Under the pieces are notes generated by a model that made no database searches, was not told where the DNA came from, and saw only the letters and a program-made list of their open reading frames with translations. From NCBI GenBank assembly GCA_964019425.1, contig OZ025792.1, positions 186,001 to 250,000 of the forward strand: 64,000 nt of DNA, written 5' to 3'. This document shows positions 20,941-58,208 of this stretch, piece by piece. The DNA comes from Flectonema sp. DT1601. Its lineage: Eukaryota. Positions within the stretch are counted from its first letter, which is position 1, and every line of letters begins with the position of its first letter. The position numbers and the translations under genes are program-made.

Positions 20941-23900
20941 TTACAGGTGGGCTGCTGATGACTTTGTCTTTGGCCGTTTACCTGATTGTCCACATTGTGG
21001 ACATAATTTATAAGAACATTGAGTGCAGTAACTCATTCGCGTGCAGCACTTGACTCGCTCTCCACATGTGAAGCACGTTTCGAATTGTGTGTAAGCTTTT
21101 CGAGTTTTCAGGGGATGCCCTTTTGGGCACTGAGTCATTAGACTAAGTCCGAGTAAGGTATCCATATCCGATACCCATTTTGGTGTTGTTCCTCTGAGAG
21201 ACGTCAGTGTCTTGCGTGGAGGTTGAACCCAAAGAGAACTGTCTGAAAGACATCCTTCTTTATTAACTATTCGAACACTAACAGATCGATGAACATCTTC
21301 TAAGTGTTGACCAACAATACTCGCTCCACAACTACATCGTTCTCTTGGAGCTACTTGTTTAACATTGTGTTGAGGCTTTACGTCTGAATCAACTTGTTTT
21401 GGAAATGATCTGATGAAGTCGATATCACGGAGATCTTTGGTGGGTTCTGTCTTCTCAACTGGCCGCTTTCGGATTTGAGGTAGTCTTTGTTGCTTGATTC
21501 CAACTAGTTTCTCCTCGTTATCTTTTCTATAAAATGGTACTACGGGTTTGTATATAATTCCGGTCTTCTTCCACTCTGAGAAGAATGGTGAAATATCAAT
21601 TGATAATTGAACTGGTACTTTAATATCACCATCTTCATTCTGTTTAATTGACAAGTCTTCCATCTTCTTTCGCAAAGTCGTCCACGAGAATGTTTTTAGC
21701 AACGCTGTCGGCGTATGAGAAACCCAAGGCTCTTCATCTGGTTTATCCTTCTCCAAAGATTCTGTTTCTTTGTCTGGAGGTTGTTCTCTGACTAATGGAA
21801 AATGCCAATTAATATCCGTATCATCATAATCATTTGTTGGTAGTCTACCGTGATATTCAATTCTTAATGAGTATGCTCTGAGAGTAGCTTGGTGAGTGTA
21901 TGTATCAAAGTCAGCTATAATGATAGCTCCTGGATTCTCATTCAGAGAAACAAATGTAATTTGAGAACACGGAGTGAGGACCGTTCTGAAGAAAGTTCCT
22001 CCGCCTTCGTATGAACTTTCATTCATTTCAAGAATTGGTATTCCGATTGGAACAGTCTTTGGGAATGGTCGTAGTTCTTGCGGAGCTGTATTAGTATTTG
22101 TTAGGTATCCTTGATCAGTTAGGTATTCCACACACCACTTTGCAGTCTTTCTTTCAGAAGGTTCGACAACAAGTAAATTTGATACAATACTACCCAGAGC
22201 AACATCTAAAGTCATAGCATGAGCAATCTTACTACTTAAGTAGTTATCAATATCAGCCGTTGGTGAATTCAAGATCTCTACAATGTTATCACAAGTAGCA
22301 GTTTCTGGAAACACTCTACTCTGAGTAAGACACTCAAGTATAATTATACCAAAACACCACATATCATAGAAACTTGTCGCTGGGAGGCTTTCTCCTCTTG
22401 TTCTCTTTCTCGCCATTTCAGGAGGACAGTAGCCTGGGGTAAATCGAAGAGGAAGTAGATTTCCTAGTTTGCAAGATGTATCGAGGTCGATTATCTTCCA
22501 CGCCTCTCCAAACTCAACAACGTTCTTTGGTTTGATATCACAATGAGCGTAACCAACTGAATGGATTTCATGAAGTCCATTGTTGAGACCTTCAACCATT
22601 GACCGAAGGTTTTCTGCTGTGAGTTCTGAATGAAAAATTGCATCCCAGAGAGTTCGACCTCCGCATTCAAACACTAAATGAGCTGTGCCTAGTGGTAAGG
22701 GATCAGTCCAGAACTCGAATAGTCGGGTAACACTTTCAGATCCATACTTTAGCAAAGCTTGACATAATTCAACTTCTGTTTGGTATTCTTGGAGATCAGT
22801 CACAGTCTTCAGTGCAACTCGTTTATTGAGTCGAAGATCAACACCCAAATGGACTTCATTGCTGGACCCTCTGACAGTCTTTTCAATAATGTATCGCTTT
22901 CTGTAAAGTGTTTGGTTGTCAGGTACCGAGACGAGATTCCAATTAGCGTCCTTGTGTATCTCAAAAAAAGAACAGGCCAACCACGTAAAGCTAATCGTTT
23001 TTACTCTTTTATGATCAGTAGCAATAATTGCGAGTTCTGTTTCGTTAAACCCGAGAGACGTTGCAACAAATGGAACGAGTTCTGTGTGTTCGTCTGTTTG
23101 CTTTTCATCCACTTGCGATACCAAGTCTAGTGTTAGCTTTAACATTAGAGCTACATTGACACCGTTATAAATATATAATATCCCTTTTTTACAACAGCTT
23201 AGAAGGCAATTTCGATTATCTAAAGTACAGCATGCAGTTACTTTTGAGTTAAGCTTTCCATAGAAAAGAGGTTCTTCAAGGTGCTTCATATCCCAAGCCT
23301 CAAGACATAGTTGGGATGAGTCATCGTTGTGCTCACCAAAGAGATACACAATTCCATTTCCAATTGAGTAGCAGGAAAGGTAGACTTGCCAGTCTGGTTT
23401 TGAAGTACCTCCTGTTAAAGCTTGGTGTCGTAGGATGGGTCTTTCATTGGAGATTCTCAGGTGATTTATAACTGAAATCTGACCTTTTTGAGAAACAATC
23501 ATCAAGTGTTTTGACTCTGTACGTTGTGATGTTATTCGACGTCTGTCACTATCAGTCGCCTTCTTCAATCGATAAATGGCTCTCACTCCCGAACTAGATG
23601 ATGTTCGAAACGTTCCCAAGACTGCTCCAGTATCAGTACTTGTAATCTTTATCCTTCCATCTTCATTCCCAACGGCTACTCTTGCGCAGTCATTATCGCA
23701 CCAACAAAGTCCTGTTTTTTTTTTAATTGAATTGAAATAACCAAATGCGGTGACAACATTCAAAAAAAAAAAAAAAAAAACTAAAAATAGATTAGCGCAG
23801 ATATTCTCACTATTCTCGCACAAAATAACTCCCACTCAGTACACAAATTGAGAACTGGTGGGGTGCAGTTGCGCTGTGAAGGATGCTGGACAGTATCGCT

Positions 23901-26900
23901 TGAACAGCGGAGTTGATTTTCTAATTATTCTCGCACAAAATAACTCCCACTTAGTTCACCATTTAGGAACTAGTGAGGTGCAGTTGCGCTGACCAGGAAG
24001 GCAGAAAGCCGGTTGGCTAAAACCTGTCTGTCAGCTAACCAAAACAGAATTCTCGCACAAAATAACTCCCACTCAGTACACAAATTGAGAACTGATGGGG
24101 TGCAGTTGCGCTGACACATCGCTCTGTAGTAAGTCGGTTAGCGTCCACATCCGCGTCGTAAATAATTCATTTCCAGAACTCATTCAGTCCTCAATGATGA
24201 GAAGACCTCAAAAATATCATCCAAAACAAAAAAAACAGAATTCTTGCACAAAATAACTCCCACTCAGTACACAAGTTGAGAACTGGAGGGGTGCAGTTGC
24301 GCTGACCAGGAAGGCAGAAAGCCGGTTGGCTAAAACCTGTCAGGGACAAATATCCAAAACTAAATCAAAACAGAATTCTCGCACAGAATAACTCCCACTC
24401 AGTTCACTATTTAGGAACTAGTGAGGTGCAGTTGCGCTGCAAAACAGAATAGCAAAGCAACCCTTTCCTTGAGGAAATGACGATTTCATGGGCGACTTTA
24501 TGAACCAACAGTAAAACAATATTAATACGAAAGAACAATTAGATGAACACCACCAGTAGTGGTTGTTGAGATAATTGATCTTCACATCCATAAGAGGGTT
24601 TGATATTAATAACAAAAAGGATAAAAAACTTCGATTCTCGCACAAAATAACTCCCACTCAGTACACAAATTGAGAACTGGTGGGGTGCAGTTGCGCTGAC
24701 ACATCGCTCTGTAGTAAGTCGGTTAGCGTCCACATCCGCGCCGTAAATAATTCATTTCCAGAACTCATTCAGTCCTCAATGATGAGAAGACCTCAAAAAT
24801 ATCATCCAAAACAAAAAAAACAAAATTCTTGCACAAAATAACTCCCACTCAGTACACAAGTTGAGAACTAGTGAGGTGCAGTTGCGCTGCGAACGCCTCC
24901 GCCTATCAGGAAGTAATTTTTTTAATAATATCTGTGTACTGCCGAAACAAAAAATATTTTTCTTAACATACCAGTGACCTCAGATGATGACAGCCGTTCT
25001 TGTGCGAGTATAAGTCTTCCATCAAGTGATGAATACGTGTACAGTTTACTACCAGATGCTAATACGATTATTTGCTTTTTGTGCCCCAATAGGATATGTG
25101 AGATTGGTTGTTTCATTTTGTGGATGTGGATATTTGACTTCGCTTTATACCAAGAAATGACTTTACCTATCGATATGAGAACCCCGTCATTTGAGTCTAA
25201 GCAGTAACAGGCAACAGGTCCAGGGAGGTATTTTGAAAGAGGACCACCAAGAGTTTGAATTGGACTATACGAACGAACATCCCACGTGATGACTCTTCCA
25301 GTGACATCCATACTTAGACACGTTGGTGTATTTGGGAAATTACAAACACCTAAAACCTGTTTATCATGACCAGCCAGTGTTGCTAATGATCCACTAGCAG
25401 TAAACGGATTCCATACAAGAACCTCCTTACCATGTCCACTACTTAGTAAGACTCGATATTCTTCAACATAACAAAGAGAGAGTACACCCTTCGTGTGACC
25501 AATCTTTTTATAACGATGTTCTCCAGTAGACAAGTCCCACACTCTAACAGTCTTATCGAGTGATGCGGAAACTATTAATCGAAGGTCACTAATTACTAAC
25601 AATTCGGTTATCCAATCTTCATGACCCAAAGCAAAGCGTACACAAGGTGTTGGATACTTTCTTGGATCAGACCAACCCGCTGTTAGTAAATCTTCTCGAC
25701 GACGTGTTCGTTGTGATGTTCGAGCGTCCTTTTGTGGAGGTAACTTCTCATCATCACTTCCTGTGAGAGTCAGTCGAGTTTTGTATCTGCCAGTTGCACT
25801 CCCTGGAGTGCTGCATTCATCTTGTTTTTGATCAACTGTGATGACATCATCTTGATTTGTGTTGTCTGGCGAGTTATTAATTTCACAATCAGATTGACTC
25901 TCTCCTATCTGAGGGTCAGCTACTGCTGTTGAAGTGACATCATCAGAGTTCTCTAATACAGTCAGAGAGTCTTGTACTGGAGTATGATCATCTGTGATTA
26001 TTATCTTCTCTTCTATTGATATTTCTGGTGCAATACTACTGATGGTTTCATGTTCGCTGGTTGTCTCACTGATGTTAGCCTGCTGTTTAACTGCTGTATT
26101 TCTGTTTGTTTTACCAACTTTCTTAATTACTTGTTCTTCTTCTCCAACGACATGTCTATCGTCTTGAAGATGACGCTCTGTGGGTGTCCATGTCATCAAG
26201 TTATCAATATTGTAGCCTTTAATGTTTCTTTCTAATCCAGCAACGTATAAGAATGCACCGTTGTCTAATCTAACAGAAGTTAAACAGAATATTGGTTGAG
26301 GGAATGGTATTCTCTTTAAAATCGAACGTTGTTTTTCATCCCAAATTATAATAGTGCTATCACTACTAGTGGTTGCGAGTCTAGCTATTGCTGTTAGATA
26401 AGCTGCGTGCATTACGGAAGATTTATGTCCGTGGAGCTCTGCATACAGAACACCTGTAGTTGTATGAATATAAACAACTTTACTTTGGGTACATAGGACT
26501 AGTTTTCTCCAAGGCTCAACATATATTATTTTATCGACGTCTCGTCCTTCCCAGTCTCTTGCTTGGGGTTTTTCTTGAAATTGTTTTATTGTTTGTTTGA
26601 TTGCTGCGGATTCTACAATAAAGGTTGAGACATCCATCCAGTCAATGAGACTGTCAGAATCACAATCGAGTTGGGTAAATAGGTTTGTGAGTCTTCTGTT
26701 AGTAAAGTCTTTTGAGACAACTCCTACTTGCTTATCAATAAGAGTCTTTTCAGCTGATTCAATGCCATCGTTGTAGTGATTTCCTTCCTTTACACGATCT
26801 CTTCCCCATTCAGTAAACGTAAATTGAATTGCTTCTCGAAACCCTTCCAAGTCCAACCGCTTCTCTCCAACTTCTAAAAAACGATTCTTAAGTACTCGAA

Positions 26901-27060
26901 TGTATTTCTCTCCTAGAACTCGTACTAGTTTATTCATCACAAATACTGATTCTGTATGATGACCCATTTTCTCCTGAGTACCTGAACGAATAATGTGAAA
27001 GTTTGACGTACCAATACTCACTGTTAGATTACCAACCATCATGAAATTATTGCTGACCAT
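20941..27060 (-). CDS. EF-hand + WD40 + protein kinase fusion with Cys-rich C-terminus; 2 exons (27060-24972, 23711-20941)
   Basis: EF-hand DCDSDSLIDWMD; WD40 repeats (GHEDWIT...SASLDKTVRVWD); kinase VALK, HCDIKPKN, TPGYCPPE. A 1260-bp phase-1 GT-AG intron at 24971-23712 joins the ORFs in frame. Exact start uncertain. Confidence 0.85.
23812..24889 (-). repeat. Intronic array 1: seven copies of a 65-bp hairpin repeat with 50-194 bp spacers; candidate AGA-box guide RNA array
   Basis: Plus-strand consensus attctcgcacaaaataactcccactcagtacacaaattgagaactggtggggtgcagttgcgctg starting at 23812, 23927, 24049, 24240, 24375, 24634 and 24825. Confidence refers to the repeat, not the RNA function. Confidence 0.95.
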
Positions 27061-27385
27061 AAACTGGTCAAACGTTCGGTTATTATGAACTCAGAAAAAT
27101 GTCAATCTGACTACCTGAGAGTGTAGAATTCAACTATACAATACCTATACAGGTTGAGATCATTGAGTATGCGATGATTAGACTTGTCGTAATGCCTGTA
27201 TTGTTTAAACATAATTACTGTGAACAGAGTCAAGAACTAATAATTATACATACAGTGATGACGTAGTTCAGATATTTCGTCTATTCGCATGAGCTCGAGA
27301 GCGATGTAAAGAAACAATTTTGGTAACGGCTGTCGTATTGTTGGTTTCATTCAATTAATATTAAATAAATAACAATTAACAAAAA

Positions 27386-28303
27386 TCATACCATATTCGG
27401 AGAGATGTTACCACTGTCATCAAGGACGAGACTAGGAAGGTTTGTCCAGTCCCAATTGTAGACGAGATTAGACACCAGAAGGGCGATTATACAGCCAGGT
27501 GCAAGAGCCATCTGTTGGGCTTTTTTATCAAAGTGCATTGTGACAGCGGCAGCGACAAGGCCAAATATCATATAAGTAGCCCAAACAGTTGTATCTGAAA
27601 AATCTGTTTCATAACCAGCGTGCATGATTGCAGCGAGGCCCCCGAATGTAGCCTGTGAATCAGGCATGCAGAATAGCGATAGTGGAATGCTCCATACTCT
27701 CCTCCACCAAATCCTGTTCATCATAAAATGTTCTTTGGTGAGACTCTTTCCAACAAACGCGCTGAAAAATTGAACGACAAAAACTAACAAAGTCAGATAG
27801 CTGTGTGCTGTCAACATCGATGACTTTATTGGTAAACAAGATCCCCAGATTCCAATTATCGTCCATTGATCTTCGTATTGTTTTTTAACAGTCGCAACGC
27901 TAATAAAATATAAATCCTCATACGACCGTACAACACCATGTCTCCAACTTATCGGTGAGAAGAAAATATGATATAAAGGTATGAGTGGTTGTGTTGCATC
28001 TCTCTCTACACATTCTACTACCTGCTTCTCACTTGGGACACCAACAAGACATGAAATAGTTAATATACAGCACAACAGTAAACACATCCACTTATAACCA
28101 ACTCCTTCAGTACTTTTTTGTAGTTTAATTTGAAGCATCTCTCTCTCAATTGTCAGTTTTTGGGTCATTTCAAACAACTGCGCAGCGGATATTGGAGGCT
28201 GTGCATTTTTGCTTGGCTTTGCTTTTGGGGGCATTACCCCCAACAGCTTGCCTTTACCTGGTTTGGGGGGGCGATTAATACGAGTAGAGTTAGAAGCAGG
28301 CAT
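27386..28303 (-). CDS. Hypothetical multi-pass membrane protein
   Basis: 305-aa ORF with several hydrophobic segments. Its first ~105 bp lie inside the duplicated 1.64-kb unit. Confidence 0.65.
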   Translation of the reverse strand: MPASNSTRINRPPKPGKGKLLGVMPPKAKPSKNAQPPISAAQLFEMTQKLTIEREMLQIKLQKSTEGVGYKWMCLLLCCILTISCLVGVPSEKQVVECVERDATQPLIPLYHIFFSPISWRHGVVRSYEDLYFISVATVKKQYEDQWTIIGIWGSCLPIKSSMLTAHSYLTLLVFVVQFFSAFVGKSLTKEHFMMNRIWWRRVWSIPLSLFCMPDSQATFGGLAAIMHAGYETDFSDTTVWATYMIFGLVAAAVTMHFDKKAQQMALAPGCIIALLVSNLVYNWDWTNLPSLVLDDSGNISPNMV

Positions 28304-28828
28304 TTGTGAAACTGCAGAAAAGTTTACTCAAGGAAAGGAAGGAGAGAGAAAAGAATCTGGCGTTTGAGATACTGGGATCTCGAGACGGAAAAAGGCTAAG
28401 CCGAAATCAGCTTTTGTGACATTAAGCCTTTTATGACACCGCTTTGCCAAAACTCAAAATAATATATGATAAGGCTGAGGATTTTCATCACCCAAGAGTA
28501 AAGACACCATCTCGTGGCATTAATTCGTTATCGGAAACTTTTAATGCCAACAAGAGAGCAGCAATCCTTTTCTGGTGACAGCCTTTTTCATATATTTTAA
28601 CTTCTAAACGATAAGATCGGTAGTGTGTGAACGAGCTCACCTAAGGTGTACACGTCAAAAATAAAAAACAAAAATAACGTACGGATATTTGACAATTTCA
28701 CACTGAGAGACCACGAAAATAAGATTTTAATAGCATGCCATTGTTAGCTTTTGTTCTTTCATTCACGATGGCTATTTTGTACCTGTATAGTTCGGTAAGA
28801 AAAAGGCAAAGTGAAAAGAAGTGTTGCT

Positions 28829-29548
28829 TTAGTTGCTATCAAAGTAATCAGCCGGATTGCCAACTATTACTGAAGCAGCGTATGAACCAATTCCGCAAAG
28901 GTTAGATCCGTATTGGATGCGAATGTAACCAGATTCTCCCCATGACTTGCCCCAGCTGTTTTTAACAATCCAGTATGCCGATGTACTAGAACGACCGAGT
29001 CCAACAACAAGAGCAGAATGATCAACTTGAGAAGAAGGACAGCTTTCAAGAATTCCACCTTCATAAGTCTCCCATGAAGTGGCATCAAAGTCTGCGAATA
29101 CCGGACCATTTTTAAATAAGAAGGCAGCAAGTTGTTCTTCTCCAGGAATCGATGTGAAGTTTGAAACCTTTGCAGTAATCTTATTCTCGTGGAACTCACA
29201 TTTTCCTGTTGCTGTTGGATATTCAGCTTCCGATTCTAATCCCCCAACACTCGCAATGTATTCAATCTTATCAGAGATCTTTGACGTGCAGTCAGCTATT
29301 TGAGCAAACGACATCATCACAACTCCAGCTTTCTTGTTTCCCTTCAAATACCATTGCGAAGCAGTCTGATCTGCAGCAGTAAAATCATCTGCCTCTCCCA
29401 AAGCACCTTCATTCTGAACAGGTGTCGTTGAAGACCTCCAATCTTTTCCCGTTGAAACGGCGTGCTTGACTTCTCCTGATCTAAACTTTTTAAAAGGATA
29501 CCCGGCACTCAGCGCCATTCCAACCATTCCAACGCATACCAATGACAT
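28829..29548 (-). CDS. Papain-family (C1A) homologue lacking the catalytic Cys, copy 1
   Basis: DWR..TTPVQNEG, VDHSALVVG, YWIVKNSWGKSWGESGY. QGxCGSCWAF is replaced by EGALGEADDF. Confidence 0.9.
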   Translation of the reverse strand: MSLVCVGMVGMALSAGYPFKKFRSGEVKHAVSTGKDWRSSTTPVQNEGALGEADDFTAADQTASQWYLKGNKKAGVVMMSFAQIADCTSKISDKIEYIASVGGLESEAEYPTATGKCEFHENKITAKVSNFTSIPGEEQLAAFLFKNGPVFADFDATSWETYEGGILESCPSSQVDHSALVVGLGRSSTSAYWIVKNSWGKSWGESGYIRIQYGSNLCGIGSYAASVIVGNPADYFDSN

Positions 29549-30469
29549 TGTAATAATAAATTAAGCTGTTTTGAAATGGTGTTCTTATAAACAAAAAACA
29601 ATTAATTCGATTAAGAATGAAACGAATAATCTGACCCCTTGGTCACCTCCTCGATAATGATTAAACTACAGCGTCTCTAGTTCCAATATGAGTTTATTAT
29701 AAAGAAGTGCACTAAATTAAAATATAAAAAAAGAAAAATTATAAAAACACATTGTTCAGTCGTCTTTCTTGAGCTTTTCCTTAGTGTTGGTGAGGAGTAG
29801 AATTCCTTCATTCGAGGATGCCATGGTGCAGTCGTTACTGTTGCTGTGCATTTTTGCTTGGCTTTGCTTTTGGGGGCATTACCCCCAACAGCTTGCCTTT
29901 ACCTGGTTTGGGGGGGGGCGATTAATACGAGTAGAGTTAGAAGCAGGCATTTGTGAAAAGTTTACTCAAGGAAAGGAAAGGAGAGAGAAAAGAATCTGGC
30001 GTTTGAGATACTGGGGTCTCGGAGACGGAAAAAGGCTAAGCCGAAATCAGCTTTTGTGACATTAAGCCTTTTATGACACCGCTTTGCCAAAACTCAAAAT
30101 AATATATGATAAGGCTGAGGATTTTCATCACCCAAGAGTAAAGACACCATCTCGTGGCATTAATTCGTTATCGGAAACTTTTAATGCCAACAAGAGAGCA
30201 GCAATCCTTTTCTGGTGACAGCCTTTTTCATATTTTTTAACTTCTAAACGATAAGATCGGTAGTGTGTGAACGAGCTCACCTAAGGTGTACACGTCAAAA
30301 ATAAAAAACAAAAATAACGTACGGATATTTGACAATTTCACACTGAGAGACCACGAAAATAAGATTTTAATAGCATGCCATTGTTAGCTTTTGTTCTTTC
30401 ATTCACGATGGCTATTTTGTACCTGTATAGTTCGGTAAGAAAAAGGCGAAAGTGAAAAGAAGTGTTGCT

Positions 30470-31189
30470 TTAGTTGTTATCAAAGTAATCAGCCGGATTG
30501 CCAACTATTACTGAAGCAGCGTATGAACCAATTCCGCAAAGGCTAGATCCGTATTGGATGCGAATGTAACCAGATTCTCCCCATGACTTGCCCCAGCTGT
30601 TTTTAACAATCCAGTATGCCGATGTACTAGAACGACCGAGTCCAACAACAAGAGCAGAATGATCAACTTGAGAAGAAGGACAGCTTTCAAGAATTCCACC
30701 TTCATAAGTCTCCCATGAAGTGGCATCAAAGTCTGCGAATACCGGACCATTTTTAAATAAGAAGGCAGCAAGTTGTTCTTCTCCAGGAATCGATGTGAAG
30801 TTTGAAACCTTTGCAGTAATCTTATTCTCGTGGAACTCACATTTTCCTGTTGCTGTTGGATATTCAGCTTCCGATTCTAATCCCCCAACACTCGCAATGT
30901 ATTCAATCTTATCAGAGATCTTTGACGTGCAGTCAGCTATTTGAGCAAACGACATCATCACAACTCCAGCTTTCTTGTTTCCCTTCAAATACCATTGCGA
31001 AGCAGTCTGATCTGCAGCAGTAAAATCATCTGCCTCTCCCAAAGCACCTTCATTCTGAACAGGTGTCGTTGAAGACCTCCAATCTTTTCCCGTTGAAACG
31101 GCGTGCTTGACTTCTCCTGATCTAAACTTTTTAAAAGGATACCCGGCACTCAGCGCCATTCCAACCATTCCAACGCATACCAATGACAT
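30470..31189 (-). CDS. Inactive papain-family homologue, copy 2
   Basis: Near-identical to copy 1. Confidence 0.9.
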   Translation of the reverse strand: MSLVCVGMVGMALSAGYPFKKFRSGEVKHAVSTGKDWRSSTTPVQNEGALGEADDFTAADQTASQWYLKGNKKAGVVMMSFAQIADCTSKISDKIEYIASVGGLESEAEYPTATGKCEFHENKITAKVSNFTSIPGEEQLAAFLFKNGPVFADFDATSWETYEGGILESCPSSQVDHSALVVGLGRSSTSAYWIVKNSWGKSWGESGYIRIQYGSSLCGIGSYAASVIVGNPADYFDNN

Positions 31190-32105
31190 TGTAATAATAA
31201 ATTAAGCTGTTTTGAAATGGTGTTCTTATAAACAAAAAACAATTAATTTGATTAAGAATGAAACGAATAATCTGACCCCTTGGTCACCTCCTCGATAATG
31301 ATTAAACTACAGCGTCTCTAGTTCCAATATGAGTTTATTATAAAAAAGTGCACTAAATTAAAATATAAAAAAAGAAAAAATATAAAAACACATTGTTCAG
31401 TCGTCTTTCTTGAGCTTTTCCTTAGTGTTGGTGAGGAGTAGAATTCCTTCATTCGAGGATGCCATGGTGCGGTCGTTACTGTTGCTGTGCATTTTTGCTT
31501 GGCTTTGCTTTTGGGGGCATTACCCCCAACAGCTTGCCTTTACCTGGTTTGGGGGGGCGATTAATACGAGTAGAGGCATTTGTGAAACTGCAGCAAAGTT
31601 TACTCAAGGAAAGGAAGGAGAGAGAAAAGAATCTGGCGTTTGAGATACTGGGATCTCGGAGACGGAAAAAGGCTAAGCCGAAATCAGCTTTTGTGACATT
31701 AAGCCTTTTATGACACCGCTTTGCCAAAACTCAAAATAATATATGATAAGGCTGAGGACTTTCATCACCCAAGAGTAAAGACACCATCTCGTGGCATTAA
31801 TTCGTTATCGGAAACTTTTAATGCCAACAAGAGAGCAGCAATCCTTTTCTGGTGACAGCCTTTTTCATATTTTTTAACTTCTAAACGATAAGATCGGTAG
31901 TGTGTGAACGAGCTCACCTAAGGTGTACACGTCAAAAATAAAAAACAAAAATAACGTACGGATATTTGACAATTTCACACTGAGAGACCACGAAAATAAG
32001 ATTTTAATAGCATGCCATTGTTAGCTTTTGTTCTTTCATTCACGATGGCTATTTTGTACCTGTATAGTTCGGTAAGAAAAAGGCAAAGTGAAAAGAAGTG
32101 TTGCT

Positions 32106-32825
32106 TTAGTTGTTATCAAAGTAATCAGCCGGATTGCCAACTATTACTGAAGCAGCGTATGAACCAATTCCGCAAAGGTTAGATCCGTATTGGATGCGAA
32201 TGTAACCAGATTCTCCCCATGACTTGCCCCAGCTGTTTTTAACAATCCAGTATGCCGATGTACTAGAACGACCGAGTCCAACAACAAGAGCAGAATGATC
32301 AACTTGAGAAGAAGGACAGCTTTCAAGAATTCCACCTTCATAAGTCTCCCATGAAGTGGCATCAAAGTCTGCGAACACCGGACCGTTTTTAAATAAGAAG
32401 GCAGCAAGTTGTTCTTCTCCAGGAATCGATGTGAAGTTTGAAACCTTTGCAGTAATCTTATTCTCGTGGAACTCACATTTTCCTGTTGCTGTTGGATATT
32501 CAGCTTCCGATTCTAATCCCCCAACACTCGCAATGTATTCAATCTTATCAGAGATCTTTGACGTGCAGTCAGCTATTTGAGCAAACGACATCATCGCAAC
32601 TCCAGCTTTCTTGTTTCCCTTCAAATACCATTGCGAAGCAGTCTGATCTGCAGCAGTAAAATCATCTGCCTCTCCCAAAGCACCTTCATTCTGAACAGGT
32701 GTCGTTGAAGACCTCCAATCTTTTCCCGTTGAAACGGCGTGCTTGACTTCTCCTGATCTAAACTTTTTAAAAGGATACCCGGCACTCAGCGCCATTCCAA
32801 CCATTCCAACGCATACCAATGACAT
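32106..32825 (-). CDS. Inactive papain-family homologue, copy 3
   Basis: Near-identical to copy 1. Confidence 0.9.
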   Translation of the reverse strand: MSLVCVGMVGMALSAGYPFKKFRSGEVKHAVSTGKDWRSSTTPVQNEGALGEADDFTAADQTASQWYLKGNKKAGVAMMSFAQIADCTSKISDKIEYIASVGGLESEAEYPTATGKCEFHENKITAKVSNFTSIPGEEQLAAFLFKNGPVFADFDATSWETYEGGILESCPSSQVDHSALVVGLGRSSTSAYWIVKNSWGKSWGESGYIRIQYGSNLCGIGSYAASVIVGNPADYFDNN

Positions 32826-33747
32826 TGTAATAATAAATTAAGCTGTTTTGAAATGGTGTTCTTATAAACAAAAAACAATTAATTTGATTAAGAATGAAAC
32901 GAATAATCTGACCCCTTGGTCACCTCCTCGATAATGATTAAACTACAGCGTCTCTAGTTCCAATATGAGTTTATTATAAAGAAGTGCACTAAATTAAAAT
33001 ATAAAAAAAGAAAAATTATAAAAACACATTGTTCAGTCGTCTTTCTTGAGCTTTTCCTTAGTGTTGGTGAGGAGTAGAATTCCTTCATTCGAGGATGCCA
33101 TGGTGCAGTCGTTACTGTTGCTGTGCATTTTTGCTTGGCTTTGCTTTTGGGGGCATTACCCCCAACAGCTTGCCTTTACCTGGTTTGGGGGGGCGATTAA
33201 TACGAGTAGAGGCATTTGTGAAACTGCAGCAAAGTTTACTCAAGGAAAGGAAAGGAAGGAGAGAGAAAAGAATCTGGCGTTTGAGATACTGGGATCTCGG
33301 AGACGGAAAAAGGCTAAGCCGAAATCAGCTTTTGTGACATTAAGCCTTTTATGACACCGCTTTGCCAAAACTCAAAATAATATATGATAAGGCTGAGGAT
33401 TTTCATCACCCAAGAGTAAAGACACCATCTCGTGGCATTAATTCGTTATCGGAAACTTTTAATGCCAACAAGAGAGCAGCAATCCTTTTCTGGTGACAGC
33501 CTTTTTCATATTTTTTAACTTCTAAACGATAAGATCGGTAGTGTGTGAACGAGCTCACCTAAGGTGTACACGTCAAAAATAAAAAACAAAAATAACGTAC
33601 GGATATTTGACAATTTCACACTGAGAGACCACGAAAATAAGATTTTAATAGCATGCCATTGTTAGCTTTTGTTCTTTCATTCACGATGGCTATTTTGTAC
33701 CTGTATAGTTCGGTAAGAAAAAGGCGAAAGTGAAAAGAAGTGTTGCT

Positions 33748-34467
33748 TTAGTTGTTATCAAAGTAATCAGCCGGATTGCCAACTATTACTGAAGCAGCGT
33801 ATGAACCAATTCCGCAAAGGCTAGATCCGTATTGGATGCGAATGTAACCAGATTCTCCCCATGACTTGCCCCAGCTGTTTTTAACAATCCAGTATGCCGA
33901 TGTACTAGAACGACCGAGTCCAACAACAAGAGCAGAATGATCAACTTGAGAAGAAGGACAGCTTTCAAGAATTCCACCTTCATAAGTCTCCCATGAAGTG
34001 GCATCAAAGTCTGCGAACACCGGACCGTTTTTAAATAAGAAGGCAGCAAGTTGTTCTTCTCCAGGAATCGATGTGAAGTTTGAAACCTTTGCAGTAATCT
34101 TATTCTCGTGGAACTCACATTTTCCTGTTGCTGTTGGATATTCAGCTTCCGATTCTAATCCCCCAACACTCGCAATGTATTCAATCTTATCAGAGATCTT
34201 TGACGTGCAGTCAGCTATTTGAGCAAACGACATCATCGCAACTCCAGCTTTCTTGTTTCCCTTCAAATACCATTGCGAAGCAGTCTGATCTGCAGCAGTA
34301 AAATCATCTGCCTCTCCCAAAGCACCTTCATTCTGAACAGGTGTCGTTGAAGACCTCCAATCTTTTCCCGTTGAAACGGCGTGCTTGACTTCTCCTGATC
34401 TAAACTTTTTAAAAGGATACCCGGCACTCAGCGCCATTCCAACCATTCCAACGCATACCAATGACAT
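33748..34467 (-). CDS. Inactive papain-family homologue, copy 4
   Basis: Near-identical to copy 1. Confidence 0.9.
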   Translation of the reverse strand: MSLVCVGMVGMALSAGYPFKKFRSGEVKHAVSTGKDWRSSTTPVQNEGALGEADDFTAADQTASQWYLKGNKKAGVAMMSFAQIADCTSKISDKIEYIASVGGLESEAEYPTATGKCEFHENKITAKVSNFTSIPGEEQLAAFLFKNGPVFADFDATSWETYEGGILESCPSSQVDHSALVVGLGRSSTSAYWIVKNSWGKSWGESGYIRIQYGSSLCGIGSYAASVIVGNPADYFDNN

Positions 34468-35389
34468 TGTAATAATAAATTAAGCTGTTTTGAAATGGTG
34501 TTCTTATAAACAAAAAACAATTAATTTGATTAAGAATGAAACGAATAATCTGACCCCTTGGTCACCTCCTCGATAATGATTAAACTACAGCGTCTCTAGT
34601 TCCAATATGAGTTTATTATAAAGAAGTGCACTAAATTAAAATATAAAAAAAGAAAAATTATAAAAACACATTGTTCAGTCGTCTTTCTTGAGCTTTTCCT
34701 TAGTGTTGGTGAGGAGTAGAATTCCTTCATTCGAGGATGCCATGGTGCAGTCGTTACTGTTGCTGTGCATTTTTGCTTGGCTTTGCTTTTGGGGGCATTA
34801 CCCCCAACAGCTTGCCTTTACCTGGTTTGGGGGGGCGATTAATACGAGTAGAGGCATTTGTGAAACTGCAGCAAAGTTTACTCAAGGAAAGGAAAGGAAG
34901 GAGAGAGAAAAGAATCTGGCGTTTGAGATACTGGGATCTCGGAGACGGAAAAAGGCTAAGCCGAAATCAGCTTTTGTGACATTAAGCCTTTTATGACACC
35001 GCTTTGCCAAAACTCAAAATAATATATGATAAGGCTGAGGATTTTCATCACCCAAGAGTAAAGACACCATCTCGTGGCATTAATTCGTTATCGGAAACTT
35101 TTAATGCCAACAAGAGAGCAGCAATCCTTTTCTGGTGACAGCCTTTTTCATATTTTTTAACTTCTAAACGATAAGATCGGTAGTGTGTGAACGAGCTCAC
35201 CTAAGGTGTACACGTCAAAAATAAAAAACAAAAATAACGTACGGATATTTGACAATTTCACACTGAGAGACCACGAAAATAAGATTTTAATAGCATGCCA
35301 TTGTTAGCTTTTGTTCTTTCATTCACGATGGCTATTTTGTACCTGTATAGTTCGGTAAGAAAAAGGCGAAAGTGAAAAGAAGTGTTGCT

Positions 35390-36109
35390 TTAGTTGTTAT
35401 CAAAGTAATCAGCCGGATTGCCAACTATTACTGAAGCAGCGTATGAACCAATTCCGCAAAGGCTAGATCCGTATTGGATGCGAATGTAACCAGATTCTCC
35501 CCATGACTTGCCCCAGCTGTTTTTAACAATCCAGTATGCCGATGTACTAGAACGACCGAGTCCAACAACAAGAGCAGAATGATCAACTTGAGAAGAAGGA
35601 CAGCTTTCAAGAATTCCACCTTCATAAGTCTCCCATGAAGTGGCATCAAAGTCTGCGAACACCGGACCGTTTTTAAATAAGAAGGCAGCAAGTTGTTCTT
35701 CTCCAGGAATCGATGTGAAGTTTGAAACCTTTGCAGTAATCTTATTCTCGTGGAACTCACATTTTCCTGTTGCTGTTGGATATTCAGCTTCCGATTCTAA
35801 TCCCCCAACACTCGCAATGTATTCAATCTTATCAGAGATCTTTGACGTGCAGTCAGCTATTTGAGCAAACGACATCATCGCAACTCCAGCTTTCTTGTTT
35901 CCCTTCAAATACCATTGCGAAGCAGTCTGATCTGCAGCAGTAAAATCATCTGCCTCTCCCAAAGCACCTTCATTCTGAACAGGTGTCGTTGAAGACCTCC
36001 AATCTTTTCCCGTTGAAACGGCGTGCTTGACTTCTCCTGATCTAAACTTTTTAAAAGGATACCCGGCACTCAGCGCCATTCCAACCATTCCAACGCATAC
36101 CAATGACAT
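35390..36109 (-). CDS. Inactive papain-family homologue, copy 5
   Basis: Protein identical to copy 4. Confidence 0.9.
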   Translation of the reverse strand: MSLVCVGMVGMALSAGYPFKKFRSGEVKHAVSTGKDWRSSTTPVQNEGALGEADDFTAADQTASQWYLKGNKKAGVAMMSFAQIADCTSKISDKIEYIASVGGLESEAEYPTATGKCEFHENKITAKVSNFTSIPGEEQLAAFLFKNGPVFADFDATSWETYEGGILESCPSSQVDHSALVVGLGRSSTSAYWIVKNSWGKSWGESGYIRIQYGSSLCGIGSYAASVIVGNPADYFDNN

Positions 36110-37031
36110 TGTAATAATAAATTAAGCTGTTTTGAAATGGTGTTCTTATAAACAAAAAACAATTAATTTGATTAAGAATGAAACGAATAATCTGACCCCT
36201 TGGTCACCTCCTCGATAATGATTAAACTACAGCGTCTCTAGTTCCAATATGAGTTTATTATAAAGAAGTGCACTAAATTAAAATATAAAAAAAGAAAAAT
36301 TATAAAAACACATTGTTCAGTCGTCTTTCTTGAGCTTTTCCTTAGTGTTGGTGAGGAGTAGAATTCCTTCATTCGAGGATGCCATGGTGCAGTCGTTACT
36401 GTTGCTGTGCATTTTTGCTTGGCTTTGCTTTTGGGGGCATTACCCCCAACAGCTTGCCTTTACCTGGTTTGGGGGGGCGATTAATACGAGTAGAGGCATT
36501 TGTGAAACTGCAGCAAAGTTTACTCAAGGAAAGGAAAGGAAGGAGAGAGAAAAGAATCTGGCGTTTGAGATACTGGGATCTCGGAGACGGAAAAAGGCTA
36601 AGCCGAAATCAGCTTTTGTGACATTAAGCCTTTTATGACACCGCTTTGCCAAAACTCAAAATAATATATGATAAGGCTGAGGATTTTCATCACCCAAGAG
36701 TAAAGACACCATCTCGTGGCATTAATTCGTTATCGGAAACTTTTAATGCCAACAAGAGAGCAGCAATCCTTTTCTGGTGACAGCCTTTTTCATATTTTTT
36801 AACTTCTAAACGATAAGATCGGTAGTGTGTGAACGAGCTCACCTAAGGTGTACACGTCAAAAATAAAAAACAAAAATAACGTACGGATATTTGACAATTT
36901 CACACTGAGAGACCACGAAAATAAGATTTTAATAGCATGCCATTGTTAGCTTTTGTTCTTTCATTCACGATGGCTATTTTGTACCTGTATAGTTCGGTAA
37001 GAAAAAGGCGAAAGTGAAAAGAAGTGTTGCT

Positions 37032-37751
37032 TTAGTTGTTATCAAAGTAATCAGCCGGATTGCCAACTATTACTGAAGCAGCGTATGAACCAATTCCGCA
37101 AAGGCTAGATCCGTATTGGATGCGAATGTAACCAGATTCTCCCCATGACTTGCCCCAGCTGTTTTTAACAATCCAGTATGCCGATGTACTAGAACGACCG
37201 AGTCCAACAACAAGAGCAGAATGATCAACTTGAGAAGAAGGACAGCTTTCAAGAATTCCACCTTCATAAGTCTCCCATGAAGTGGCATCAAAGTCTGCGA
37301 ACACCGGACCGTTTTTAAATAAGAAGGCAGCAAGTTGTTCTTCTCCAGGAATCGATGTGAAGTTTGAAACCTTTGCAGTAATCTTATTCTCGTGGAACTC
37401 ACATTTTCCTGTTGCTGTTGGATATTCAGCTTCCGATTCTAATCCCCCAACACTCGCAATGTATTCAATCTTATCAGAGATCTTTGACGTGCAGTCAGCT
37501 ATTTGAGCAAACGACATCATCGCAACTCCAGCTTTCTTGTTTCCCTTCAAATACCATTGCGAAGCAGTCTGATCTGCAGCAGTAAAATCATCTGCCTCTC
37601 CCAAAGCACCTTCATTCTGAACAGGTGTCGTTGAAGACCTCCAATCTTTTCCCGTTGAAACGGCGTGCTTGACTTCTCCTGATCTAAACTTTTTAAAAGG
37701 ATACCCGGCACTCAGCGCCATTCCAACCATTCCAACGCATACCAATGACAT
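37032..37751 (-). CDS. Inactive papain-family homologue, copy 6
   Basis: Protein identical to copy 4. Confidence 0.9.
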   Translation of the reverse strand: MSLVCVGMVGMALSAGYPFKKFRSGEVKHAVSTGKDWRSSTTPVQNEGALGEADDFTAADQTASQWYLKGNKKAGVAMMSFAQIADCTSKISDKIEYIASVGGLESEAEYPTATGKCEFHENKITAKVSNFTSIPGEEQLAAFLFKNGPVFADFDATSWETYEGGILESCPSSQVDHSALVVGLGRSSTSAYWIVKNSWGKSWGESGYIRIQYGSSLCGIGSYAASVIVGNPADYFDNN

Positions 37752-37957
37752 TGTAATAATAAATTAAGCTGTTTTGAAATGGTGTTCTTATAAACAAAAA
37801 ACAATTAATTTGATTAAGAATGAAACGAATAATCTGACCCCTTGGTCACCTCCTCGATAATGATTAAACTACAGCGTCTCTAGTTCCTTACTAATATCTT
37901 AAAGTAATATTGTACGCTCCTAATGGTTACGGAAGGCCTAACTCAGTTGTAAGATAG

Positions 37958-38737
37958 TTACGTTTTCAGTCTCTTTATATCACCTGTAGGTGCTTTAGAA
38001 GTAATGATATTCAAAGGCGTGCAAGGCCAGAATGGAATTTTCGAACTAGTTTTTGTTTCATATGCTGCGTGTAAGCGGCTCTCCAAAACAGTCAACTTAT
38101 CAACAGTTTCTTCACTGTAGAGAACGATAGATGCCTTTCTTTTGGTTTCTTGCTGACTGACAACAGGTTGGCGATCGAGGAGTTTTTGCTCACGTTCGGC
38201 GTTCTTACGTTTTTCAGCTCGCCGTAGTTCTGATTGAACGAACATACTAATCCAAGCTTTATTAACAGCCTTGGCTGCATCATCATCATCATCATCATCA
38301 TCTGGTTTATTAGAAGGCTGAGATTTATTTTTATTATTTCTATCATACAACACGATGGGGCCCTTACTATCCTCCCTGTCGGAGGAGCAGCTTGACTCGC
38401 TGCCGTTGCTTTTCGGAACGACCTCGTAGCGGGGTGGTTTCGCGAGCTGTTCTGGAAAAGTCGGCTCAGCAGCCTGAAGAGCTTGAGCCTGAGCAGCTTG
38501 AGGAGGAGAACTTTCTACCAATGAGTCACTGCTGCTGATTGTAGATTCCGACTGTTGGTCTGTATCAACAGGCAGCTTCGTGTTTGTGGGCTCCTTCATC
38601 CCTGCAGATACAAACTGTTGTGCTTCGGGGTACGAAGTGCGTACTCCATACCCTCCACCTCTCTCTGTCTCCAAAGCTGTGAACAACGACCACGGGATCG
38701 GTGGCATCGGCGGTGTGGGTACCGAAAAGGCACTCAT
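37958..38737 (-). CDS. Hypothetical low-complexity protein
   Basis: Open frame from MSAFSVP just downstream of a CAG acceptor; poly-Asp and coiled-coil-like stretch. Confidence 0.6.
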   Translation of the reverse strand: MSAFSVPTPPMPPIPWSLFTALETERGGGYGVRTSYPEAQQFVSAGMKEPTNTKLPVDTDQQSESTISSSDSLVESSPPQAAQAQALQAAEPTFPEQLAKPPRYEVVPKSNGSESSCSSDREDSKGPIVLYDRNNKNKSQPSNKPDDDDDDDDAAKAVNKAWISMFVQSELRRAEKRKNAEREQKLLDRQPVVSQQETKRKASIVLYSEETVDKLTVLESRLHAAYETKTSSKIPFWPCTPLNIITSKAPTGDIKRLKT

Positions 38738-39142
38738 CTTGTACCCCAATACCTGACAGTACAAAAATAGTTACAAATAGCGAATTACATACAAAATTAA
38801 CACAAAAGATTATTTAAGAAAAAGATCAAGTTACCCCAGACATTGATTGTTCCAAAACTGTGGGGGTGAATATACACAAAAGGTATCTCGTAGTTAGTAA
38901 ATCATTCACAACAATCGTAAGACGTACACTATTCCTATTGATTAGGTAAATAATAAACGACACGACATCAATTCGTCGTATCCTCACGTAGTAAGTATTC
39001 CAACAGAACAAATAGTTCTGGTGAACTACTTACTATTTGTGCAAGACACACACGTGTCATGTTGGATACTAAAGTAAGTATCTCACAACTGCTAACATTC
39101 CATGTCAACAAGTAGAATATAACTACCGGTAGTTGAATTAGC

Positions 39143-40858
39143 TTATATCGAATTCAGAGGGAAGCTACCACAGTAATATTTAAGATGCCATTCATTACCA
39201 CGTAGACGTTTTAGTTCTTCTTTATCCCATCTCTGAACGTATTCTACTTCATCGTACATGTGTCCCTTCTTTGCTTGGTATTTAGTTCTTTCTTCAAGGA
39301 CTGATTTAAAGTCGAAGTCGTCACCCACTGTTTTGTTTGATAAAGCTGTTTCTAGTTGTGAAGTGATAAACGTATTTACTCATACCAATATTTCCTGCAT
39401 TCTTGTGGTTGACTGGTGGAGATCCGTGTGCCCTGCAACCTCCATCTGTTACAAGTTCTATTCTCATAGATCTCACATTTTTAAAGTTATTGTGAGGAAG
39501 AGGACCCCAACCAATGTGATTCCTGTCAGCTGACCTTGTCAAACTTTTTGATCTTCTTGCACGAGCACGGTTTCTCATTTTTTCTAAAATACGATTATCA
39601 AGTAGTCTCCCTCTGTTAAACTGTTTTTGTTGTGGTTTTGAATTCGACAATGAGACTGCACCCCTCGACATGAAAGGACGCAAGAACAATCACAATTTCT
39701 CAATATCTCGCACAGAATAACTCCCACTCAGTACACAAATTGAGAACTGGTGGGGTGCAGTTGCGCTGACACATCGCTCTGTAGTAAGTCGGTTAGCATC
39801 CACATCCGCGTCGTAAATAATTCATTTCCAGAACTCATTCAGTCCTCAATGATGAGAAGACCTCAAAAATATCATCCAAAACAAAAAAAACAGAATTCTC
39901 GCACAAAATAACTCCCACTCAGTACACAAGTTGAGAACTGGTGGGGTGCAGTTGCGCTGCAAAACAGAAGTAAAGCAACCCTTTCCTCGAGGAAATGACG
40001 ATTTCATGGGCGACTTGAAAACCCATTATCCCACACCACTTCGTCAAAATATTTCATTCTCTTGAGTTGTCGTTATAAATAAACCAACAAGACCTCGTGA
40101 GTTTGGATTTACTCATTTCTTAGTTTACATCAGAGTTGAGTTTTGATATCAACAAAAAGGATAAGAACTTCGATTCTCGCACAAAATAACTCCCACTCAG
40201 TACACAAGTTGAGAACTGGAGGGGTGCAGTTGCGCTGTGAAGGATGCTGGACAGTATCGCTTGAACAGCGGAGTTGATTTTCTAATTATTCTCGCACAAA
40301 ATAACTCCCACTCAGTTCACCATTTAGGAACTAGTGAGGTGCAGTTGCGCTGACCAGGAAGGCAGAAAGCCGGTTGGCTAAAACCTGTCTGTCAGTTAAC
40401 TAAAACAGAATTCTCGCACAAAATAACTCCCACTCAGTACACAAATTGAGAACTGGTGGGGTGCAGTTGCGCTGACACATCGCTCTGTAGTGTAAGTCGG
40501 TAAGCGTCCACATCCGCGCCTTAAATAATTTCTTTCACTGAGACGGCCATAAAGGGACAAATATCCAAAACTAAAATAAAAAACAGAATTCTCGCACAAA
40601 ATAACTCCCACTCAGTACACAAATTGAGAACTAGTGGGGTGCAGTCGCGCTGTAAAGCCTGCTGGACAGCTTGATATTCTCACAACACTTGTTAGTAAAA
40701 GAGAAAGAAAGAAAAAAACAAACCCATTCTCGTTCATCATATCTCATCTTCATCTGTGTTGACATAACTTGATGATAACCTTTGTGACGCACTTGTCGAG
40801 ATAAGCTTCCAGCACCCGCAATGCTACTCACAGCTATTCTATTAATGTTCATATTCAT
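39143..40858 (-). CDS. Basic protein with a mitochondrial-presequence-like N-terminus; 3 exons (40858-40724, 39620-39386, 39327-39143)
   Basis: A phase-0 intron at 40723-39621 (1103 bp, contains array 2) and a phase-1 intron at 39385-39328 join three short ORFs. Arg-rich N-terminus lacking acidic residues. A mitoribosomal role is only a guess. Confidence 0.7.
39704..40652 (-). repeat. Intronic array 2: six copies of the same 65-bp hairpin repeat with 50-213 bp spacers
   Basis: Copies start at 39704, 39895, 40173, 40288, 40410 and 40588. Spacers are shared with array 1 in a different order. Confidence 0.95.
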
Positions 40859-56154: not shown

Positions 56155-56511
56155 TTTAACTCGCCCGAGTAACCTACAAAATGTGATGATGAATGGCTTG
56201 GAGTATGATGAGATTATAACGAACGTGCAAAACATGTTTCTTCAAACAGACTTCCCATTTTTTTGGTGCACAACGTAGTCCCAACCTATTGAAAATAACG
56301 CCACTATGGGCTTCTGATAATGTCATCTTCGCTGTTAAGTAAAATTGATAATTAGGCTTCGCTCTAAAAGAGGAAACAGATAAATCAAAAACAAACAGTG
56401 GCTAACTGTAGCCCTGAAAGCAAACGAACGAACAACATCAATCTGATGCAATGTTTAACTGTATCACATATCACTTTTGATTATTAACGTTCAAATACGA
56501 CCAATCATTTC

Positions 56512-57879: not shown

Positions 57880-58208
57880 TGACTGTTCTCATAGAAAACA
57901 ACACAAGACATGCCTTTATCACTACACTCTTGTGAACAAACAGTGACTGTTCTCATAGAAAACAACACAAGACATGCCTTTATCACTACACTCTTGTGAA
58001 CAAACAGTGACTGTTCTCATAGAAAACAACACAAGACATGCCTTTATCACTACACTCTTGTGAACAAACAGTGACTGTTCTCATAGAAAACAACACAAGA
58101 CATGCCTTTATCACTACACTCTTGTGAACAAACAGTGACTGTTCTCATAGAAAACAACACAAGACATGCCTTTATCACTACACTCTTGTGAACAAACAGT
58201 GACTGTTC
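57880..58208. repeat. Perfect tandem repeat, 64-bp unit, five copies plus 9 bp
   Basis: tgactgttctcatagaaaacaacacaagacatgcctttatcactacactcttgtgaacaaacag repeated with no differences that I could see. Confidence 0.97.

Follow-up and report, generated by a model that had tools for sequence, protein, structure and literature searches.

The stretch of DNA analysed here (the window) comprises 64,000 nucleotides (nt) of Flectonema sp. DT1601 (GCA_964019425.1; contig OZ025792.1, positions 186,001-250,000). It contains 13 copies of a 65-nt unit, all in a single orientation, grouped in two arrays of seven (array 1, 23812-24889) and six (array 2, 39704-40652). Each array lies within a long intron of a protein-coding gene, where the units (R1 to R13), which we interpret below as probable guide RNA genes, alternate with spacers of 50 to 213 nt. 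The two host genes, their introns and the members of the arrays are as follows.

20941-23711, minus strand: host gene 1, downstream exon with the kinase domain (Pfam and homologs)
23712-24971, minus strand: intron 1, 1260 nt, GT..AG, contains array 1 (5 of 5 homologs continuous across it)
23812-23876, minus strand: R1, predicted AGA-box guide RNA (fold and consensus fit), consisting of an A and stem I (6 base pairs, bp), pocket strands 23868-23863 and 23830-23824, stem II, and AGA at 23816-23814
23877-23926: spacer A, 50 nt, identical to 40238-40287
23927-23991, minus strand: R2, of the second loop type and with one compensatory change in stem II
23992-24048: spacer B, 57 nt
24049-24113, minus strand: R3
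24114-24239: spacer C, 126 nt
24240-24304, minus strand: R4
24305-24374: spacer B', 70 nt, with the head of B and a tail in common with C'
24375-24439, minus strand: R5, between 11-nt direct repeats (24366-24376 and 24440-24450)
24440-24633: spacer D, 194 nt, head and tail in common with D', middle unique
24634-24698, minus strand: R6
24699-24824: spacer C, copy 2, 126 nt
24825-24889, minus strand: R7, mosaic of both R types
24972-26967, minus strand: host gene 1 (a WD40 and protein kinase gene), upstream exon with the WD40 repeats (Pfam and homologs of five diplonemids)
39387-39620, minus strand: host gene 2, exon 2 (182-residue diplonemid protein without a Pfam family; homologs)
39621-40723, minus strand: intron 2, 1103 nt, GT..AG, contains array 2 (homologs)
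39704-39768, minus strand: R8
39769-39894: spacer C, copy 3, 126 nt
39895-39959, minus strand: R9, between 9-nt direct repeats (39887-39895 and 39961-39969)
39960-40172: spacer D', 213 nt
40173-40237, minus strand: R10
40238-40287: spacer A, copy 2, 50 nt
40288-40352, minus strand: R11, second loop type
40353-40409: spacer B, copy 2, 57 nt
40410-40474, minus strand: R12
40475-40587: spacer C', 113 nt, with the head of C and a tail in common with B'
40588-40652, minus strand: R13
40724-40858, minus strand: host gene 2, exon 1 (45 codons; homologs)

A recount agreed with the original prediction, made from the letters of the window, on the number of copies, their order, their shared orientation and the spacer lengths. 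Any two copies of the unit are identical at 54-65 of 65 positions, and the best ungapped match to a non-member in the window reaches 34/65. When the window was searched with a covariance model with the filters off, the 13 copies were recovered at E<=1e-26 and no fourteenth was found; the remaining matches were nine opposite-strand echoes of the same hairpins and eight at E>=0.8. At the outer edge of both arrays is an 11-nt piece resembling the 3' end of the unit (23801-23811 and 40673-40683), possibly a remnant of a partial or lost copy.

Both host genes are on the minus strand, and the claim that each array lies wholly inside a long GT-AG intron was borne out by diplonemid homologs that are continuous across both introns. 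The best relatives of host gene 1, from Diplonema japonicum, D. ambulator, Sulcionema specki, Namystynia karyoxenos and Artemidia motanka, are all uninterrupted across 24971/23712. Word-indexed protein searches with host gene 2 returned no relatives, and a full HMMER search found three, from Flectonema neradi, Rhynchopus euleeides and D. papillatum. The F. neradi homolog joins EREW to FNRG exactly at 40723/39621; the other two cover all three exons, with a weak match to exon 1. Host gene 2 (39146-40858, minus strand) thus encodes a conserved protein of 182 residues, without a Pfam family, whose relatives were found only in these three other diplonemids. The 3' splice sites are A-rich, like those reported for D. 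japonicum (PMC12621601; statements on published work refer here and below to those parts of the papers that were available). As to the other introns, most of which the original prediction put at about 50-110 bp, one short intron of ~58 nt was backed by homologs. A heuristic search with an upper limit of 200 nt proposed 12 further candidates, between 40 and 151 nt long.

Read on the host-gene strand, the unit forms one hairpin, which consists of an A, a 6-bp stem, an internal loop of 6+7 nt, an upper stem, one unpaired base and AGA. This strand folds more stably than the opposite strand in 13 of 13 copies, with z-scores, in the four copies tested, of -1.8 to -3.3 versus -1.0 to -1.8 for the other strand. 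The arrangement is that of the trypanosomatid H/ACA-like guide RNAs, described as single hairpins of 57-91 nt with a stem I of 5-8 bp, a perfect stem II of 3-7 bp, an A or C before stem I, and an AGA box that follows stem I by 1-3 nt and precedes the 3' end by ~3 nt (Myslyuk 2008, PMC2613932). In that consensus the target position lies 13-16 nt from the AGA box, and 3-9 bp are formed on either side of the target uridine in ribosomal RNA (rRNA) or small nuclear RNA (PMC2613932). All 13 copies have an A before stem I, a stem I of 5-6 bp, one unpaired base and AGA, together with 14 nt from stem II to AGA, a 5' pocket of 6 nt and a perfect stem II of 3-6 bp; the preceding A and the AGA box are invariant.

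As a crude model of this class is said to pass at more than 1 million places per genome (PMC2613932), the consensus test was anchored to the repeat's own ends, with end ranges that we set. In this form it fitted 13/13 copies on the host (minus) strand and 0/13 on the other, so that the strand adopted in the original prediction was wrong. The background of the test was 0.3-0.4%: elsewhere, with both strands counted, 83 of 20,445 windows passed, as did 2 of 667 65-mers of equal stability. A stricter filter, unanchored and requiring a stem I of >=6 and a stem II of >=5, let through no more than 9 of the 13 copies, along with 74 of 2,698 AGA sites.

Conservation of the sequence runs from 2 nt before stem I to 2 nt past AGA, and the flanks are unrelated. 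The 16 columns that make up the pocket and the AGA box include none of the 15 variable ones (nominal P 0.008, for columns that are not independent). Within the stems, four pairs carry one-sided standard changes, and one of these also carries a double change. When one copy was compared with Rfam, the trypanosomatid H/ACA family TB11Cs4H3 (RF01541) aligned weakly to it, end to end, on the host strand and with the same ends. A search of Rfam over intron 1 gave seven weak, unrelated matches, and a tRNA search gave none.

The spacers are mosaics of one another. B and B' have 37 nt in common and B' and C' 23 nt, D and D' have a common 45-nt head and 14-nt tail around unrelated middles, and the block A-unit-B-unit-C head is present in both introns. 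Copies of a spacer are 96-100% alike, comparable to the units, which indicates recent copying of the arrays. On the host strand, the fold of six spacers or spacer heads was no better than that of shuffles (z -1.3 to +1.6), and no AGA hairpin was found in the spacers. The search for C/D-box small nucleolar RNAs (snoRNAs), which carry C and D boxes and a stretch of 10-21 nt antisense to rRNA, gave only one imperfect C box accompanied by a D box, in spacer C. Antisense matches of spacers to rRNA, examined against four operons, had maximum lengths of 10-12 nt, lay scattered and did not surpass the sense matches, and elsewhere in the window the spacers matched only poly(A) runs. The spacers appear to be linkers rather than cargo.

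The expected target and register were written down before any rRNA was examined. The published Diplonemea probe DiploR1792 (PMC7970053), used in a scan, picked out 83 loci, of which 60 were ribosomal DNA (rDNA) and 23 were discounted as chance matches. The region of the large subunit (LSU) rRNA that contains the site described here is covered by seven of the rDNA loci. The best site for the pocket is a single uridine, CUGACU[U]UGUGCAG, present in 7/7 of these loci, where it would be flanked by 5+6 bp in the preset register. In the eukaryotic LSU model this uridine falls within a conserved part. In one of these loci (L031) and in the preset register, the real score was matched by 10 of 2,000 shuffled pockets. 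The real pairing scored 28, versus 22 for antisense rRNA and 17 for the plus strand of the unit. Counted from the Trypanosoma brucei pseudouridines 628, 643, 679 and 721 (PMC10662448), the equivalent position in that species is U696 of LSU-beta. We regard this uridine as a fair but unproven prediction of the target, whose chances of being right or wrong are about equal.

Other candidates fitted less well. A first guess at the target, the uridine before an LSU motif in locus L001, fitted poorly, with upstream bases that vary among 10 diplonemid loci. Neither of two T. brucei guides could be taken as the ortholog: the hexamer in common with TB6Cs1H1 sits in the 3' half of that RNA, and none of the hexamer's nine places in the table looked like an ortholog's 5' pocket, while TB11Cs4H3 guides LSU-beta 628 and 643, not 696. 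A spliced-leader guide of the SLA1 type was set aside as well, the pocket of the unit differing from that of T. brucei SLA1. In viral contigs, matches to a 15-nt piece of the unit were seen at 100 loci; the best had 32/65 identical positions, and all were attributed to chance.

Two of the rRNA loci deserve mention in their own right. L031 (6700-7374) is a diplonemid rDNA contig that passes from LSU into subtelomeric repeats and then into TTAGGG-type telomeric repeats, so that rDNA stands beside a telomere. L001 (3904-4292) is a contig from a viral collection that ends in a fragment of eukaryotic LSU rRNA; this end is probably an assembly chimera.

Rearrangement by recombination through the repeat, as had been suggested for the arrays, was supported by the variants within the unit. 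Among 78 pairs of variable sites, all four combinations are present in 8, and in R7 the two types are combined as a mosaic. This points to recombination or conversion inside the unit, with repeat mutation as the alternative. Direct repeats, A-rich in sequence, stand at the exact junctions of R5 (11 nt) and R9 (9 nt), and unrelated pairs of flanks give 0-5 nt. The left flank of R5 and R9 is common to six copies, and in the window sequence alone the junction repeats look like one old insertion with a target-site duplication. An A-rich tail after the 3' end of the RNA was not seen; on the host strand, the sequence past AGA is U-rich in most copies.

Taken from sequence comparison, the explanation that we favour, and hold to be reasonably likely, is that the 13 intronic units are genes of one single-hairpin AGA-box (H/ACA-like) guide RNA, cut from spliced introns and directing one pseudouridylation of LSU rRNA. 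The host transcript would be spliced, and the intron would then be cut in the unstructured linkers. The pieces would be trimmed to hairpins protected by the set of proteins that forms the Cbf5 core, giving RNAs of ~66 nt, and each released RNA would guide pseudouridine formation at one uridine of LSU rRNA. Several units per intron would require internal cuts, as in the snoRNA clusters of T. brucei, which are processed from polycistronic precursors (PMC3273796). At least one unit may have arrived at its site by copying of the mature RNA, leaving the 9-11-nt junction repeat and no poly(A) tail. Unequal recombination and gene conversion through identical units would have multiplied and shuffled blocks of unit plus linker within and between the two introns. 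Of the earlier idea of a polycistronic small-RNA cassette riding in host introns, the cassette and its place in introns are retained; the RNA would be the repeat, on the minus strand, and not the spacers. The unit fits a known class, the AGA-box guide RNAs.

Several observations count against this explanation. With regard to the anatomy, the crude consensus is permissive and non-guide 'AGA-like' RNAs exist (PMC2613932). The edges of the pocket were drawn with the variants in view, covariation was no higher than in shuffles (187 of 500 equal or above), the top pair of stem I is lost in two copies, and stem II contains a U-U in two. No curated Rfam family claimed the unit at its gathering score; the match to TB11Cs4H3 had 14.4 bits against a threshold of 40 and an E of 1.1, ranked below the microRNA family mir-246 (E 0.22), and the TB11Cs4H3 pocket differs from that of the unit. 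As the spacer copies are as alike as the units, much of the identity among units reflects recent copying, and the spacers hold no other guide, unlike the mixed clusters of trypanosomes. With regard to the target, the rRNA came from other diplonemids, assigned by the probe only, and 3 of the 7 positions that the match has on the 5' side differ from what had been predicted in writing, one as a wobble and two by being unpaired. When four registers were allowed, shuffled guides reached the score in 6 of 300 cases and 12 base pairs in 50 of 300, and simulated rRNAs did so in 15 of 300 and 67 of 300, respectively. LSU-beta 696 is also absent from the list of modified positions of T. brucei.

Comparison with known systems showed the closest likeness to the trypanosomatid single-hairpin AGA-box H/ACA-like snoRNAs (for example RF01541, TB11Cs4H3; similar RNAs occur in Euglena), which the unit resembles in size, the single hairpin, the A before stem I, stem I's length, the AGA box, the 14-nt spacing, the predicted two-sided pairing with rRNA and the clustering of repeated genes. 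In both T. brucei and Euglena, snoRNA genes are clustered, polycistronic and repeated (PMC2784804, PMC3273796, PMC2613932). The clusters of T. brucei mostly mix C/D and H/ACA genes, and trypanosomatids are almost free of introns (PMC11613528, PMC3273796), whereas here one guide is repeated alone, in cis-spliced introns of unrelated protein genes and with shuffled linkers. The predicted site, unmodified in T. brucei, is a further difference, as is the pocket when compared with that of TB11Cs4H3.

CRISPR (clustered regularly interspaced short palindromic repeats) arrays have a repeat-spacer layout, with unique spacers of even length and with cas genes, and mosaics of repetitive extragenic palindromic sequences and bacterial interspersed mosaic elements (REP/BIME) have a mosaic one. 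The original prediction had drawn both analogies, and neither adds anything. Unlike those systems, the present arrays lie in introns of a eukaryote and keep to one orientation; their spacers, 50-213 nt in length, are reused and chimeric, and the unit forms its hairpin, which includes an internal loop, on one strand. The open reading frames of the window that were read contained neither a cas nor a transposase gene, and the flanking genes are eukaryotic. The CRISPR-like look is probably that of a multiplied guide-RNA gene rather than of an immune array.

Three other features of the window were recorded. Between the arrays, at 28328-37763, a gene for a papain-family cysteine protease is present in six tandem copies, which are 98-100% alike and follow one another at intervals of ~1.64 kb; this region is prone to recent duplication. 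A 64-nt unit is repeated 5.1 times with 100% identity at 57880-58208, in an apparent long GT..AG intron (58320-57832, minus strand, a candidate), and no guide-like fold was found in it. Finally, an open frame of 644 codons at 54307-56241 (plus strand), which contains ~16 copies of a 25-residue leucine-rich-looking repeat, is on the strand opposite to every other long gene.

The guide-RNA explanation could be extended to a self-multiplying AGA-box snoRNA that places tail-less copies into introns genome-wide, forms tandem arrays of a single guide through recombination and adds a lineage-specific pseudouridine to the LSU, so that the dosage of the guide would be set by a mobile element. We consider this unlikely.

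Somewhat less probable still is that the unit, derived from an AGA-box guide, is now a selfish snoRNA retroposon multiplying in introns, with most copies unneeded and the rRNA match a relic or incidental. Thirteen copies of one guide within 17 kb, in two unrelated genes, would be expected of such a repeat, yet none of them is broken, truncated or without its pocket or AGA, and no further copies were found in the 64 kb. The boundaries of the unit coincide with the predicted mature ends, and the direct repeats that stand precisely where R5 (11 nt) and R9 (9 nt) meet their flanks exceed the 0-5 nt of unrelated flanks; this putative duplication is confined to the D-type flank, and there is no poly(A) tail. 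Mammalian snoRNA retroposons (snoRTs) insert in sense orientation in introns with a target-site duplication (Weber 2006, PMC1687206). The present units are like them in starting at the predicted mature 5' end, in their sense orientation in new host introns and in the apparent duplication, but snoRTs have an A-rich tail and duplications of ~14 bp and are mostly single (PMC1687206), whereas here there is no tail, the duplication is 9-11 nt at one type of flank, and the copies stand in tandem arrays.

We give a similarly low probability to an origin of the arrays as mosaic DNA that came to lie in introns and stems from a non-autonomous element, a satellite or the mitochondrial constant region, its likeness to a guide being chance. 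The nuclear genome of D. papillatum holds ~10,000 dispersed repeat motifs and more than 1,400 mitochondrial insertions, ~20% of them in introns and untranslated regions, one insertion being 164 copies of a 68-bp stretch (Valach 2023, PMC10161547). Like our arrays, these include short units arrayed in nuclear DNA, some of them intronic; the D. papillatum arrays are head-to-tail copies, for which no guide-RNA anatomy is reported in the available parts of that paper. Diplonemid mitochondrial chromosomes have recurring flanking motifs in common, but the published cassette-flanking motifs are longer than 100 bp and frame gene pieces (PMC5658414). The unrelated 64-nt tandem repeat in an apparent other intron of the window would suit such an origin, but that repeat is without a comparable fold. 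Under this explanation, moreover, the end-anchored fit against its low background (0.3-0.4%), the host-strand bias, the protected pocket and the rRNA match must all be coincidence.

Hepatitis delta virus (HDV) ribozymes need a catalytic C. That the unit is a self-cleaving ribozyme or processing signal releasing the spacers as RNAs, in a retrozyme-like or CRISPR-like cassette, is very improbable: the repeat-spacer layout and a pseudoknot possible by eye, which every variant tolerates (host-strand positions 7-10 with 47-50 and 11-14 with 56-59), speak for it, but no Rfam ribozyme family (HDV-like, twister, pistol, hatchet, hammerhead) matched at threshold or at E<=10, the would-be HDV J4/2 strand has no C, and the spacers are mosaics that fold no better than shuffles.

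Repeated snoRNA genes were already known from T. brucei and Euglena, and intronic and retroposed snoRNAs from mammals (PMC1687206). In the literature searched, which included the D. papillatum genome paper apart from its main supplementary PDF, we found no diplonemid snoRNA, and in the parts searched, which did not extend to the supplements of PMC12621601, no single-guide arrays common to introns of unrelated genes. The Flectonema arrays are thus likely to represent a known class of RNA in an undescribed, amplified intronic arrangement. If our explanation is correct, the unit would be the first candidate snoRNA for diplonemids. It would extend the single-hairpin AGA design to a third euglenozoan lineage, and would show it housed in introns, which is impossible for the intron-poor trypanosomes. 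With one RNA of ~66 nt and one uridine to examine, the proposal would be cheaply testable, in a group with a genetically tractable model. The arrays would also offer a natural case in which to study the release of several guides from a single intron and the multiplication of guide genes.

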